Shown piece after piece: positions 18,280 to 63,209 of a DNA stretch of 64,000 nucleotides (positions are counted from its first letter, which is position 1; the number at the start of each line of letters is the position of its first letter). A program made the translations under genes and the position numbers. The DNA comes from Octopus vulgaris (taxonomy: Eukaryota), in NCBI GenBank assembly GCA_951406725.2, contig OX597815.1, positions 145,390,001 to 145,454,000 on the forward strand, in the 5' to 3' direction. The notes beneath the pieces were generated by a model. That model ran no database searches. It was given only the letters and a program-made list of their open reading frames with translations, and had not been told where the DNA came from.

Positions 18280-18337
18280 TATCACTGACGAAGAGAGAGC
18301 TCTTAGTAGCTAACTCTGAAATCGGTCCGATATGGTA
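18280..18337 (+). ncRNA. Type I hammerhead motif
   Basis: tatca-CTGACGA-agag...ctct-GAAA-tcgg t ccg-ATA-tggta. Confidence 0.75.
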
Positions 18338-22309: not shown

Positions 22310-23159
22310 ACACACATATATATTGGTAGATATATAGATACATAAACTGATTCACAAAATGAAAGCTACACTGAGTAATATATATATATGTCTACCTATC
22401 CATCTACGTTTATGTAAGTGTATATATTCATCTACCTATATGTACACACACACCAACGCACACACACATTTACACACACGCGCACACGCACATACTAGGA
22501 TAAAGAAATGTGAAAATAGTGTGTCGGGCAAATTTTTATAGCAACCAAACGGAAAGGTAAATAATTAGACCAGAAGAGAGACAAATTGAAAAAAATGGGT
22601 GGAAAAGAAAAAGAAATAATGAAGAAAGAAATATATTGGAAGAACAGCAATCTAAACCTTTTGAAGTAAAAAGCAAAGAAAAAAATGTAAAAACAACAAA
22701 CAAAAAGGTTAACAGGATAACTGAAGTATATGAAAATACAGTCAAGGACGTAAGTTAAGAAAAAAATGGATAAGTAGGAAGGGAATAATGGGCAGAGGGA
22801 GAGATGAGAGGAGAGAGGGGAGAGTTAGTGAGAGAAAGAAGGGAAAGAGAGAGAAAGAAGAGAGGGAGGGAAGAAAGGGGGTAGGAAGAAGTTTATGTGG
22901 ACATGAATAATGATAAAAGAAAAGATGAGGAACGAGGATGCTCAAGTGTTTGGAAAACGAAGTGGATGCTTGACAGAGGACCTAGATTGGACGAAAGGTA
23001 GATAGATAGATAAATAGATAGACAGATAGATGGATTGCTAATTATATAGATAGATGGATAGATAGATAAATAGATAGGGATGAGGATAGATAGATAGATA
23101 GCTAGATAGTGAGGAGGATAGATAGACAGATAGATAGATAGATGGATAGATAGGTATTC

Positions 23160-23429
23160 TTACTTTTATTCTTATACTTCTTTCAGTCATTTCACTGCGG
23201 CCATGCTGGAGCACCATCTTAAACAGTTTTAGTCAAACAAATCGACCATAGGACTTTGTTTTCTAAGCCTAGTACTTATTCTATCAATCTCTTTGCCGAA
23301 CCGCTAGGTTACGGAGAGGGAAACACACCAACGTCGGTTTTCAAGCGATGGTGGTGGGGACAAACACAGACACAAACACACAAAACTTTGTGAGTGGATT
23401 TGGTAGACGGAAACTGAAAGAAGCCCGTC

Positions 23430-23496
<67 letters not shown>

Positions 23497-23699
23497 AGTG
23501 TTTGTGTCTCTGTATTTGTAACCAACCATCGCTTGACAACTGATGTTGGTGTGTTTAAATCCCCGTAACTTAGCGGTTCAGCTTAAGAGACCGATGGAAT
23601 AAGTACTTGGCTTGCAAAGAATAAGTCCTGGGGTCGATTTGTTCTAACAAACGCGGTGCTCCAGCATGGCAGCAGTCAAATAAGTGAAACAAATGAAAG

Positions 23700-23702
<3 letters not shown>
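23160..23702. mobile_element. Two SINE family A fragments in opposite orientation (minus 23160-23380; plus 23386-23702)
   Basis: Both match the family A body/tail. Confidence 0.8.
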
Positions 23703-23736
<34 letters not shown>

Positions 23737-23925
23737 CAATAATAATTCTCTAAAAGAGATATAGACAGTAACTGCTCGATAACATAAGGGACTAAAGCCA
23801 TCTGAATATGGCTAGGGACAGGGCAGGGTGGTGGGGGTGTTACTGTTGCATTTAGCCCCAGGCGAACATCGACGTCACCAGAAAGGCTAGACACCGTCAC
23901 GGTGTCCTTATCCTGCAAAGGGAGG

Positions 23926-24023
23926 TAATTCCCCGATGAAGCGGAAACCACACACGGACCATGGTTTCAAGGTGTATTGCCTATCATCGGCGTGTGGTAG
24001 GCTTCCGCCTCCTCGACGAATTC
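23926..24023 (-). ncRNA. Type I hammerhead ribozyme with long stem I (unit 1)
   Basis: gcggaagcct-accacacg-CCGATGA-tagg caataca cctt-GAAAC-catg-GTC-cgtgtgtggt-ttccgc. Predicted cleavage after C at 23957. Confidence 0.85.
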
Positions 24024-24287
24024 TCACTCTGCAGGATTTTCACATATAGATTTTCAAGCAAAATACATTTGCTGATTTCGAAAATCTGTTCGAAAGCAAT
24101 AATAATTCTCTTAAAAGAGATATAGACAGTAACTGCTCGATAACATAAGGGACTAAAGCCATCTGAATATGGCTAGGGACAGGGCAGGGTGGTGGGGGTG
24201 TTACTGTTGCATTTAGCCCCAGGCGAACATCGACGTCACCAGAAAGGCTAGACACCGTCACGGTGTCCTTATCCTGCAAAAGGGAGG

Positions 24288-24385
24288 TAATTCCCCGATG
24301 AAGCGGAAACCACACACGGACCATGGTTTCAAGGTGTATTGCCTATCGTCGGCGTGTGGTAGGCTTCCGCCTCCTCGACGAATTC
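24288..24385 (-). ncRNA. Type I hammerhead ribozyme with long stem I (unit 2)
   Basis: Same as unit 1 with core CCGACGA. Predicted cleavage after C at 24319. Confidence 0.85.
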
Positions 24386-24624
24386 TCACTCTGCAGGATT
24401 TTCACATATAGATTTTCAAGCAAAATACATTTGCTGATTTCGAAAATCTGTTCGAAAGCAATAATAATTCTCTAAAAGAGATATAGACATATTCAGATGG
24501 CTTTAGTCCCTTATGTTATCGAGCAGTTACTGTAAAGCCCATTACGTCTGAGAGGATGATGTCTAAATCAGCTGGTTTGTGAAGCTGTACGTTACCTTTT
24601 CACAGTGCAAACAGTTACAAAGCC

Positions 24625-26040
24625 TCATCCTAATACCTCTTGGTAGACAATATTTTTCGTTCTACCCCGGGGTGAGTAAACGAAGAGACTTTTCTTGCTT
24701 CCCAGCCGGGAACAACCGACGTATAGCTGACCGTGTGAGAAGCATGATTCATCTAAATGCAGCCCTGCCACCGATAGTGTCTGCCCCTGTGACTTACTGA
24801 TTGACATTGCAAAATATAGTCTAAGCGGGAACTGCAGACGGCGAAATGCAAAGGGAATATCTGCATCAGATGGAATGAGTGGGATTCTGGGGATGAAAAC
24901 GTCCTCTCCTTTGCAAGAGAATTAAGAAACTCCACTGGATATTTCACTGCCTGGTCGTCGTCGGGTACAGAATCGATTGACCCGTACACGTGCAGCCTTC
25001 CGGGAAGCTAATGCAGCAACTTAGCGCTGAGAGCGACCACTGTGCTGTTTTTTGGAGCCAAAATGGCTCTTTCAGAAATCCAATTCATGTCAAGGTAGTT
25101 CCTTTGTAGATTTGGAAAAACGTGCCTCTAGATCATCGGAATTACTGACAGTGGTGCAGAGGTGAGTTAGTGACAGTTCTCCGTTTTCATCGAGCGGAAC
25201 AACACCGTTTCCGATCAACAATATGTCAGATGCAAAATCTGATGCCATCTGGTCACCACGAAACCGCGCTCTCATGTTTGTTATGAGAGACAATGTTGTA
25301 ACATTTTTCCACAGTGGGGAGGACTTTAGACAGGCCTTGACTACATCTGCCCTAGTTCCCTTGAGTATTACAGGAAGCGTTTGTCGGAAATCGCCAGACA
25401 GGAGGAGAGTTATTCCACCCATCGTAGCGGGACAGTCTCTAATGTCTTGAAGAGTGGTGTTGAGAGCTTCGAGGGATCGCTTGTGGGCCATTGTGCATTC
25501 ATCCCAAACTATCAGCTAGCAACTCCGGAGAAGCAAACCCTTTTCAGACCTATCGGTGATGTTACAGGAAGGCACTTCGGACCTTGCCAAATCAATTGGT
25601 AGCTTAAAGGTTGAGTGCGCTGTCCTGCCACCGGGCAGTAAAGTTGCTGCAATGCCAGAGGAGGCCACAGCTACGGCTACGTCTTTTCGGTCTTTAGTAA
25701 GAAGCTGAATAACAAACGTTTTTTCCTGTCACTCTAGGTGCATCAAGAAAAGAACAATACCCCTTTTCGTTTCTGCATGTGGTCAAAGATGGTACTGTAA
25801 GCCCACTGTTGCTCAGGCAGAAGTTTGGGCTCATTTTGCTGGATGTATTGATTATTAAGGGCTTCAGTGTCATAGGACGTTTCACGTATTAACTCTGTTG
25901 GTATTAAAGGCGTCCCGTGGCGCAATGGGTGTTTGTGTCTGTATACATGTATATGTACATATGTAGACATATTCATACATACGTACATTATGGCTGCCCT
26001 CTCGTTATCGAGTAAGGCCATTGCACGAAGCTTAACTGTT
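24625..26040 (-). mobile_element. Helitron Rep/Hel remnant (PIF1-family helicase domain), pseudogenised
   Basis: FLDAP..TGK; AVASSGIAATLLPGGRTAHSTFKLP; IVWDECTMAHK; GGITLLLSGDFRQTLPV; LITNMR; RAILAPKN; YPVEFLNSL; IPRIPLIP; QFPLRL.FAMSISKSQGQTL; FSHGQLYVGCSR; TKNIVYQEVL*. Frameshifts and an internal deletion. Confidence 0.93.
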
Positions 26041-26299
26041 ACTGGTGCTGTGATCGAATGTGACTTTTTAGCCCAACTAAAGATCTACAATGTCTTGTAC
26101 AGAATTGGCTACTAAAACCTTTACCGGTAATAGCCGGCTGTTGTTGTAACTGGGCTTCATGTACCTTTTTGGTACATCATTGATTTTTTGCTTTTTAAGG
26201 CTACAGTCAGCCATTCAGTTGAGACTCACAGCGCCATCAACAATCATGCATTAGTTAATCAATTTAATCAATCAATCAATGTTGTTATCGTGCAATGCC

Positions 26300-37910: not shown

Positions 37911-39280
37911 CTATTCATATGGGATATTGATGTTCGACATTTTGAATTTGGTTGCGTGCCTGCATGAGTTCAAAAGTTCGCTTCTTTGATTCAAAGAATT
38001 AATATCTTGGAATAATATGAAATATTTTTCTAATAAACAAAGATCGCATTTGAAATTCTTCCTATGTGCTCCGTGCCTTTATGGTGCCGCTCTATCTAGA
38101 ATGCTCCATTACACGTTGAAAGGTCGAGTTTCTTTTTTCTTTTAGTTCCCAGACATATTTCGCCAGGCTGGTCTTCGTCTTATTTTCTGGGTATCGAATG
38201 GAATTTTTGTGCGAATAAAACCGGGTTTTAAAAGGATTTTCAGAAGCCCTTGTATAAGTCTTATATTCAGGTGAGCCTTCTGTTTGCACCTTGGCTCTAT
38301 ATACGACTCCTTTTTCCAACCATTTCCCTTCCAACGGACAGGAGGATCCATCTTTGCAATTACATTTTTTTAAGAGGATCGGCACTATGTTTATATCAAT
38401 TAATTTCCTGTTGTGCTGGTTAACATAAGAGGTGAAGTTCCTGCAACATGAATAGCTTATCTTAAGGGTTCTTCTATTAAATATTCTATAAAATTTATGA
38501 TCCTGTTTAAAATGCCTAGAGACTAATTTCAAGAATTCCCTACCTATGTTTGTTTTTACGACCAAATTAAAAGCTGGGTTGAACCACAAAACTTTCCTGG
38601 TCCTAGTTCTACGTGTAGCGTTACTACTAGCATTAAGTCGGCTATACTGGATCTTCTCAGAAAATCCACTATTCCTTAATGCGCTATCGTAATAAGGTGC
38701 AGCATTATGGAATGCTGCCTCATCCGAAGAAATTGACGATATAAAATATATTTGCTAATAATGCCTATTGCAGTTTTAGCCAGGTTGATCAATCTACATT
38801 TGGGGTTTCTATTAAAATTGGCTTTATTGTCTCTCAGGGCCATAAAAGCGGGTCGTGAAGAAAGATATTCTATCCTATCGCTAATCTTAAGATTGTTAGC
38901 TATTCTTCTTGCCTCCAAATTCACCTCTTTGTATATATTTGTGTTATCTTTCTTGTATGTGTCTGTGACGCTATTCGAAATTAGACGCTTGTAAACGTCC
39001 TTATCAAGTGCATATAAGTTTCTTGTCTTATCAGAATTAACGAAGATCTTATTCGAGTTGTTAATTTCCTTAATTTTTTCTTTCATATTTCTCTGTAATT
39101 GGTTGCTATATTTACGGAATAAATAAGTTCGATGAAAATAGATGAAAATTTTCATCTGTCTTACACGCTTATATTCAGGTGTGTGCTGAATTTCTCTAGA
39201 GAACATTCTTTTTTGTGTGGTTAGATCGTAGATGATTTTCTTCTAGCATATTGGATATCCACTTAGTGGTCATCCCTTAT
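37911..39280 (-). mobile_element. Naiad-type Penelope-like retroelement, RT core deleted, GIY-YIG retained
   Basis: SDKTRNLY...NPKCRLINLAKTAIGIISK (RT N-part) is joined to ALRNSGF...WFNPAFNLVVKTNIGREFL...KISYSC; CNCKDGSSCPLEG (CxCx5C); VVYRAKV...FKTRFYSH...TSLAKYVWELK; CDLCLLEKYFIL...LNQRSELLNSCRH. Confidence 0.88.
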
Positions 39281-50029: not shown

Positions 50030-50734
50030 GTAAATCTCTCCATAAATCGCGTAACTCTGGTAAAACAAATATCTGGTTGATTGTTCCATACGGAAAACAA
50101 GCTAAAATTATCCTTCCCCACCTATTTCGTCAAGCTATCGAAAGGAACTTTCTCTTAAATTCCAGGTATCAGAATTGGCTTCCCCAACACCAGTAACCTC
50201 CTGCAAATTATATCCTCGCATAACAACTACATTCTCAAAGTTAATAGAATTCCTCTTAATAACTGTAGTAACATTAATGATATTAACGATAATCTCTCCT
50301 TGAATAATAATATCAATGATATTAGTCCTTGTTACTGTGGCCCGAATATAATTTGCGTCCTCAATGGGAATTGAAGAATTGAAAATGTTGTTTACCAATG
50401 CAAAATTACCTCTGGATCTAAAGAACTCTTTTATACGTAGTTGAAAAGCTGTATCGCAAACCATCTTTCCACTTTTAAATACAGTCATAAGCGTGATTCT
50501 ACAGGACTTAGTAAGCTAATTTGGCACCTCAAAGATTCTAGTAAATATTTTTCTTTAGATTGGAAAATTTTATCAAGATCATATCCCTATAACAAAGGGA
50601 AATCTTTCTGTCTTCTTTGTACAGACGAACAACTATCTTTTCTCTTTTTTAAACATAAACTGGTCAACACCTTTAATGAACGTGCTTACAAGTGTTTGCA
50701 TTGGAAAAAACAATCATTTGCCTTTTTTAAATAA
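50030..50734 (+). mobile_element. Naiad-type Penelope-like ORF remnant (linker + GIY-YIG)
   Basis: IWLIVPYGKQ...RIGFPNTSNLLQIISSHNNYIL...CYCGPNIICVLNGN*RIENVVYQCKI...IANHLSTFKY...STGLSKLIWHLKD...WKILSRSYPY...CLLCTDE...KCLH. Confidence 0.82.
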
Positions 50735-62135: not shown

Positions 62136-62226
62136 TTTTTTTCTGTCAAGACAATACTTGTTCCAAAGTATTCTTCTTCTTCTTCTTCTCGTCCTCCTCC
62201 TACTTCTTCTTCTTCTTCTTCTTCTT

Positions 62227-62762
62227 CTAAAGGCTATCCCACTGATGAAAACTGGCCTTCAGCGAATAGTTAGAAACCATGGTCTGGGAAATAGTTGAGA
62301 AGGTAAACGTTTTTAATTTTCCCTCCTTTCGAGAATTTATCCTTTTTTTTGTGGTTTTTGAGATTTCTACTGCTCTTTCTAGCACAACGCTTTCCTATTT
62401 GGAAGCCTCTTATTGTATTTCTATATGAATGACTAATTAGTCTAATGACTAATTCGTTTTTTGTGCTAGGCCACTGGTAATAATAACTTATTATTACCCT
62501 AGTTATTATGTTTAAATATTGTTTGATAAATTTGTTCGAAATTTTTACTGGCATCCTCTCTGTCGCCGGGTATAATCTGCGTCTGCGCAGTGGTTTGAAA
62601 AGTTAGGATATACAAACCGTTAGTTCTACATATGGATCTGGCTGTCTGTATGTCTGAAATCTAAAGGCTATCCCACTGATGAAAACTGGCCTTCAGCGAA
62701 TAGTTAGAAACCATGGTCTGGGAAATAGTTGAGATGGTAAACGTTTTTGAGATTTCTACTGT
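62227..62762 (+). mobile_element. Non-coding element with two identical hammerheads 434 bp apart (retrozyme/pLTR-like)
   Basis: ctat-ccca-CTGATGA-aaact...agtta-GAAAC-catg-GTC-tggga-aatag, with cores at 62242 and 62676. Confidence 0.82.
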
Positions 62763-63209
62763 TCATATTTAGTAACTGTATACCTACTTTTTCCCACGCC
62801 TGTATATTATACGCAATATTGTATTAATATGATGCAAAAATAACTGTATACATGCGAATCCTCGGGTGACCAGAAGTCAAAGCACTGCTATATCAAATTT
62901 AGTTTCCCAATATTTCATACCTTTAGCAAAATACTATTTCTAGTATTTCTCTGACAAAGAGGAACAAGGATATGCAAAGAGACACAAATGAGAAAAGATA
63001 CGAACATATGTTGTTTTGCAAACAACATGCACAAGCAAGTGCTACCAGTGGAGAACTTCGCATACCGGAAGCCAGCAAGTGTATGGGACCATCAGGAGAG
63101 AATGCGCGCCGTTTTGGGGGCCTATCTCTCGATGGCATCATGCGTACCGAACCACGTACACTGTTATCATTTGCTAGAACAACTGGTTATTGAATATAGC
63201 TCAATACTC

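Follow-up and report, generated by a model that had tools for sequence, protein, structure and literature searches.

A hammerhead-bearing tandem insert in Octopus vulgaris with retrozyme-like units and Penelope-like ends

Tandem units and a variant hammerhead motif

We identified a non-coding insert of approximately 800 bases in the window, the whole 64,000-nucleotide stretch of Octopus vulgaris DNA analyzed here (contig OX597815.1). The insert consists of two head-to-tail units, a partial third unit and an inverted piece. Unit 1 (23735..24094, 360 bp), unit 2 (24095..24456, 362 bp) and the partial third unit (24457..24489, 33 bp) all lie on the minus strand, and the last of these, which comprises a tail sequence plus 3 nt, forms the 5' end of the direct body. 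TRF reports the tandem (23735-24489) with a period of 362, 2.1 copies and 98% matches. Units 1 and 2 are 98.99% identical, differing by one substitution and two single-base indels that include position 24348 and the A-run at 24278. These differences fall at a CpG site and in a homopolymer, both of which are hot-spot types, and they may have arisen in place or reflect assembly error. The original prediction of two near-identical units plus a partial third, carrying no credible ORF, holds on both points. The longest ATG frame (94 aa) is present in unit 2 only, starts in loop III, has no Pfam match, and is disrupted by the A-run allele in unit 1 and in the public sequencing runs X19, X2 and X8. 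No RT or GIY-YIG frame was found within or beside the insert.

A descriptor search identified one type I hammerhead motif on the minus strand of each unit. The unit 2 motif (24304..24369) has the core CCGACGA at 24352-24346 and C17 at 24319. In unit 1 (23942..24007, limits set by the 362-bp offset from the unit 2 motif) the core is CCGAUGA at 23990-23984 and C17 is at 23957. Stem I begins with six base pairs, CACACG/CGUGUG, followed by a bulge and eight further pairs. Helix II is only 3 bp with a U-U at its base, and the GAA that comes next leads into helix III, ACCAUGGU, a 2-bp perfect palindrome that is able to pair between units. With C17 found at both 24319 and 23957, the predicted cuts lie 362 nt apart, as was first proposed. 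The monomer predicted between them (23957..24318, minus strand, 362 nt) is 46% GC and has a folding z of about -5 as a linear molecule and -5.4 as a circle compared with shuffles. A comparable hammerhead match on either strand occurs in one of 3000 dinucleotide shuffles of the unit.

The core carries a C at position 4 (U4C) in both units. The motif was originally described as a textbook type I hammerhead, and while the type I assignment stands, U4C and the U-U closing helix II are not textbook features. A strict CUGA descriptor would miss the U4C core. Rfam likewise returned no hammerhead for the unit motif at E<=10. However, this result says little, because Rfam was equally blind to a canonical-core hammerhead at 62242. 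The latter belongs to a second hammerhead pair on the plus strand (62226-62764), for which Rfam identified no hammerhead. It consists of two 89-bp copies 434 bp apart, with a canonical CUGAUGA core, a 5-bp stem I, and a helix III, GAAACCAUGGUC, as in the octopus unit. The pair begins right after a (TTC)n tract and otherwise bears no clear likeness to the unit; it is likely a second retrozyme family or a pLTR pair. A single weak hammerhead-like match on the plus strand at 18285-18332 (CUGACGA core, 5-bp stem I) may be due to chance.

Three sets of observations bear on how well the octopus hammerhead may work. U4C considerably lowers activity in vitro, with viroid infectivity still possible, according to the account in PMC3088659. 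The axolotl hammerhead HHR_Amex2 has the same build as the octopus unit, a U-U-closed helix II and a 2-bp helix III; as described by Cervera and de la Pena (2020, PMC7229834), its monomer cuts 22% in an hour, its dimer cuts better, and multimers remain in vivo. In our folding calculations the active fold of the monomer lies 7-9 kcal/mol above the MFE, and helix III pairing is predicted to be near 0 in the monomer. Based on the U4C core, the HHR_Amex2-like build, and the cost of the active fold, the octopus hammerhead is predicted to be slow or dimer-dependent. Self-cleavage of a transcript of the unit is plausible. Among the Xenopus dimers reported by Li, Clavereau and Pollet (2026, bioRxiv 10.64898/2026.07.22.740005), eight of nine did not cut.

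A core look-alike, CCGAUGA-AGCG-GAAAC, is also present on the plus strand at 23933-23948 and 24295-24310, again with C at position 4. It arises from the complement of the 3' arm of stem I, and 13 of 3000 shuffles yield such a motif. By inspection stem I cannot form, and we do not regard the look-alike as a second ribozyme. An "off" hairpin with the complement of the plus-strand motif was also rejected, being less stable than the active fold. The look-alike may be what is left of an inverted duplication.

A pattern scan for the variant core matched four viral loci and at least 120 metagenome loci. Among the matches listed, one of 124 loci satisfies a relaxed hammerhead descriptor, and the rest look like chance. 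This single locus (L120), on the minus strand at an offset of about 300 in the reverse complement, has a CCGAUGA core, a 5-bp stem I, a 4-bp helix II and, as in the octopus unit, a CAUG loop III.

Insert ends and flanking elements

The 3' end of the insert abuts a (TA)n microsatellite (23705..23734), as originally noted. This tract is likely the nicked target, is present on one side of the insert only, and has an inverted-repeat, MITE-like element (about 23155-23704) around a TA tract directly to its left. The direct (3') end carries a 30-nt tail (23735..23764, minus strand), following the definition of a tail in PMC8557442, PMC3846280 and PMC11167929, which is absent from the inverted end. 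The opposite, 5' end is an inverted truncated copy (24490..24533, plus strand), and the 44-bp inverted piece noted earlier proves to be an exact reverse complement of 24126-24169. It begins at the inner boundary of the tail and extends for 44 nt, or 46 nt when a 2-nt inward overlap is included, with no outward extension. A 2-nt microhomology joins the inverted piece to the body at 24488-24489.

In unit coordinates the outer ends of this one copy are 30 nt apart. The tail lies in a predicted stem-loop whose base would join both ends. The direct body is 755 nt in length and spans two hammerheads; the 3' end of the insert follows the cut site by 222 nt, and both ends are about 200 nt from a cut. 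The 5' end of the body falls at most 3 nt from the inner of the two putative start sites, an arrangement with a chance of about 2%. We found no homology between target and RNA at either start site, and the flanks share no target site duplication (TSD) of at least 3 nt.

The 5' inversion was originally attributed to twin priming. L1-type twin priming is characterized by a poly(A) end and by primer homology at the internal site. The insert lacks an L1-type poly(A) end, and no complement of the flank, which ends in CTTT, was found 3' of the internal start site. [quoted passage not shown] In the anole PLE, the tail reportedly corresponds to the segment of a stem-loop that separates two internal sites of RT initiation; the enzyme cleaves both strands of the target, extends them without homology, and acts mainly on uncut RNA (Frangieh 2024, PMC11167929). 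Additionally, (TA)n is a listed target of the octopus Naiad and Hydra PLEs. Two primers therefore remain likely, as twin priming implies. However, with no poly(A), no primer homology, and ends that match the PLE signature, we reject the L1 route, and the inversion is better read as a Penelope inverted copy without a tail.

The flank to the right of the insert, outside the element, contains decayed PIF1 helicase frames (24534..26084, minus strand; PF05970, E 2.8e-28 and 4.2e-13), which we take to be of Helitron type. The flank protein is 98% identical to O. sinensis LOC115224828 and about 60% identical to O. bimaculoides entries. The insert lies about 90 bp after the helicase stop, on the same strand, and ends at (TA)n, as might be expected if the adjoining Helitron carried the repeat at its 3' end as cargo. 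However, the Helitron has decayed and carries frameshifts, in contrast to units that are 99% alike; the insert terminates in CTAT with no CTRR, and no intact Helitron 3' terminus was seen beside the insert. Furthermore, the sequencing depths of the unit and the Helitron differ about 1000-fold, and no contig among those listed joins the two. An origin as Helitron cargo is extremely improbable.

The window also contains an internally deleted PLE remnant (38095-39242, minus strand) with the DKT and CxCx5C motifs of the Hydra clade. PLEs of this clade are defined by these two motifs, target (TA)n, and carry canonical hammerheads. The remnant has 21 relatives (407-934 aa, 32-46% identity) and by eye resembles Hydra-1_Obim. 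No hammerhead was found behind it by descriptor. The remnant shows that such enzymes were once present in this genome, but it is not identified as the donor. No donor PLE was recognized by a sequence match to the unit elsewhere in the window, and six short motifs of the unit are absent from the Naiad/Chlamys/Hydra consensus supplement. A frame at 50441-50731 (plus strand) resembles by eye the C-terminal portion of the GIY-YIG endonuclease of a PLE, and Pfam gives only a sub-threshold unrelated match for it.

The family in public sequencing runs

Part of the unit is present in 20 of 24 listed runs, representing 10 studies. We compared the contigs of four runs (X1, X19, X2 and X8) with positions 24065-24760. 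In the DNA-like run X1, 1458 contigs match this region, 576 of them at 99% identity or above. The summed depth in X1 is 2e5-1.2e6 over the unit compared with 170-720 over the Helitron flank; depth is not equal to copy number, but the contrast indicates a family of very high abundance.

The unit-to-unit joint (24472 -> 24112) is found in X19, X2 and X8, and head-to-tail organization thus exists outside 23735-24533. The X8 contig of 390 nt corresponds to a 360-nt loop plus a 30-nt overlap, in a run that is only guessed to be RNA. X2 is likewise a guess, and no run is on record as RNA. X19 contributes a single contig with a depth of 3.4 in a 2.3-Gb read-out, which is probably trace DNA and is not counted as a second host. 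In closed-loop contigs of this kind, circular RNA is not separable from tandem DNA or multimeric RNA. Among the contigs listed, none spans the inversion or the junction with the flank, an absence that carries no information on polymorphism.

Seventeen variant sites are listed in the unit. Only one lies inside the 66-nt hammerhead, at the free position N7, which is a CpG, and this scarcity is not significant by itself (P 0.15). No variant at C4 is found among the sites listed in the four runs, and U4C therefore looks family-wide. The copy in the window and the X1 majority disagree at six of the sites listed. Taken with the similarity of the two units, this distance fits a family that is young or homogenized, as judged from sequence comparison. 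At 24250, 24371 and 24405 the two units have the same letters, all of them infrequent in X1; this fits either a single template or a population difference, and X1 may come from another population or species. Contigs of X2 on 24195-24489 have loose ends that are homologous to the unit by eye, with 8-9 differences per piece; these diverged relatives suggest older subfamilies.

It is conceivable that there is no separate family and that the repeats are pseudo-LTR fragments of an autonomous coding PLE, produced by template jumps and 5' truncation. Every end feature of the insert is also found in autonomous PLEs, as described in PMC8557442 and PMC3846280, and retrozymes are related to pLTRs according to bioRxiv 10.64898/2026.07.22.740005. 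One loose end in X1 (24199, three contigs) enters non-unit sequence, and the loose ends listed number only 11 out of 90. However, most of those listed look by eye like diverged unit. The tail continues directly into the next unit twice, without a change of register, three other runs show the unit closed by this joint, and the insert has no ORF. An origin as debris of a coding PLE is thus quite improbable. Rather, by sequence criteria the insert is likely a member of the metazoan non-LTR retrozyme class with the insertion anatomy of a PLE.

Template of the insertion and comparison with known systems

Given its units and its ends, the insert is very probably a non-autonomous retrozyme mobilized by a PLE. 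We propose that the PLE would nick both strands of AT-rich DNA and that its RT, needing no primer homology, would initiate at a pair of internal sites separated by about 30 nt, both steps being modeled on the biochemistry in PMC11167929. The nick in (TA)n would prime at the outer site (23735) and give a 755-nt cDNA across two hammerheads, while the second nick would prime at the inner site, which corresponds to 24126, to give a cDNA of 44-46 nt. The two cDNAs would then be joined by the 2-nt microhomology at the point where the first had reached the second start site. The missing TSD and the unlike flanks suggest that the target DNA between the nicks would be lost. Some transcripts may cut themselves in dimeric form, paired by the palindromic helix III, yielding monomers of 360-362 nt that are perhaps circularized.

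A cleaved linear monomer is excluded as the template because the 3' end of the insert lies 222 nt past the cut and the body crosses two hammerheads. The latter observation agrees with the original proposal that the template was read through the cleavage site twice. The position of the 5' end of the body near the inner start site is simplest to explain if the second primer engaged the same linear RNA at a point two units further upstream. At 24348 and in the 24278 A-run, where the units differ, either allele is frequent in X1 (60% and 30% of depth), which is what the transcript of a mixed array would give. Together, the geometry and the differences between the units agree no less well with a linear multimer than with a circle. 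If the insert is indeed a PLE-mobilized retrozyme, a linear multimer is probably the explanation, rather than a circle or a later duplication. On balance we favor, with some reservation, a young non-autonomous hammerhead retrozyme that was copied in trans by a PLE, most likely from an uncut linear multimer.

The original prediction envisaged rolling-circle reverse transcription, as proposed for other retrozymes in PMC7229834, with the RT passing twice around a circular 360-362-nt RNA. Such a template would account for an insert that exceeds unit length and has ends far from the cut site, for the X1-rare letters common to both units, and for the assembly of X8 as a 360-nt closed loop and of X19 as a 407-nt loop. 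The monomer is also predicted to fold stably as a circle (z -5.4), and abundant circles of mussel, coral and axolotl retrozymes are described in PMC7229834. However, tandem DNA or multimeric RNA would also assemble into a closed loop, and X19 is DNA-like. The inner start site would be met after 30 nt on a circle, and the RT would need to continue past it on two occasions before ending there on the third. Additionally, the units are not identical and the ribozyme is predicted to be slow. A circular template is possible but doubtful. The retrozyme-like, PLE-type and read-through elements of the earlier model are retained, and the circle gives way to a linear multimer that fits at least as well.

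The second unit could also have been added to a one-unit insertion by later DNA duplication or gene conversion, or it could be an assembly artefact. A one-unit insert would already contain a direct repeat of 33 bp from which unequal exchange could start, and the indel differences between the units are of homopolymer type. Satellite-like amplification has been argued by Li, Clavereau and Pollet (2026, bioRxiv 10.64898/2026.07.22.740005). However, the three differences between the units argue against a pure assembly duplication, and head-to-tail joints are general in the family, which speaks against a later event at this locus. We consider such an origin improbable.

It may be that a slow hammerhead, attenuated by U4C and the U-U-closed helix II, became fixed in this very high-copy octopus retrozyme because Penelope enzymes need uncut multimers, with transcripts split between circles and integration substrates, although we consider this idea speculative and unlikely. 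If it is true, the insert is a direct record of the two sites at which a PLE starts on a retrozyme that has no ORF.

The retrozyme class and the outline of its mechanism have already been published, and the gain made here is moderate. The original prediction of a probably uncatalogued cephalopod family stands in that the unit is a high-copy family in an octopus. We found no cephalopod retrozyme family in the literature, searched mostly as titles and abstracts, and supplementary species lists may include cephalopods. The words "hammerhead" and "ribozyme" are absent from the main text of the O. vulgaris repeat paper, and the host group of the octopus unit is not covered in the text consulted of PMC7229834 and bioRxiv 10.64898/2026.07.22.740005. 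The octopus family extends the class to cephalopods. Mobilization of animal retrozymes by PLEs has so far been argued from co-occurrence and from relatedness to pLTRs, whereas here a retrozyme itself bears the PLE tail-and-inversion footprint, which names two candidate PLE start sites on retrozyme RNA. This footprint and a family-wide U4C core that strict descriptors miss are two modest points of interest.

Metazoan non-LTR retrozymes are described in PMC7229834 as tandem units of about 150-450 bp with a GC content under 50% and no LTR, PBS or PPT. The octopus units, at 360 and 362 bp and 46% GC, fall within these ranges for size and composition and are similar in size to the mussel units of 350-390 bp described in the same source. 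Like other metazoan retrozymes, the octopus family is non-coding, multi-copy and head-to-tail with one type I hammerhead per unit. The definition given by Li et al. requires a hammerhead in two consecutive units (bioRxiv 10.64898/2026.07.22.740005), and the octopus insert has one in each of its two units, with the variant U4C core. A TSD of more than 4 bp is optional in the account of PMC7229834, and the octopus insert has none. Metazoan retrozymes co-occur with PLEs, and a PLE remnant is present in the octopus window as well. The octopus unit differs from metazoan retrozymes in the C at core position 4, and cleavage and circles, which are described for those retrozymes, are a matter of prediction for the octopus unit.

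On the PLE side, the hammerhead of Hydra-1_Obim differs from that of the octopus unit, the tabulated Hydra cores all being CTGA, and the insert has no sequence tie to the catalogued octopus PLE families. EN+ PLEs have an RT/GIY-YIG ORF that the insert lacks. A closer parallel is provided by the non-autonomous Chlamys PLEs such as MRC1 of a green alga, which are ORF-less and form multicopy head-to-tail insertions through PLE enzymes, like the octopus insert (PMC8557442). MRC1 is described as sharing its 3' sequence with an autonomous partner, whereas such a partner was not found for the octopus unit. In its anatomy the octopus insert resembles the PLE insertions described in PMC8557442, PMC3846280 and PMC11167929, which combine a partial tandem, a 5' inversion and a tail at one end. 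As with the EN+ PLEs of PMC11167929, the target is AT-rich or (TA)n, and the start sites lie on a stem-loop without primer homology.
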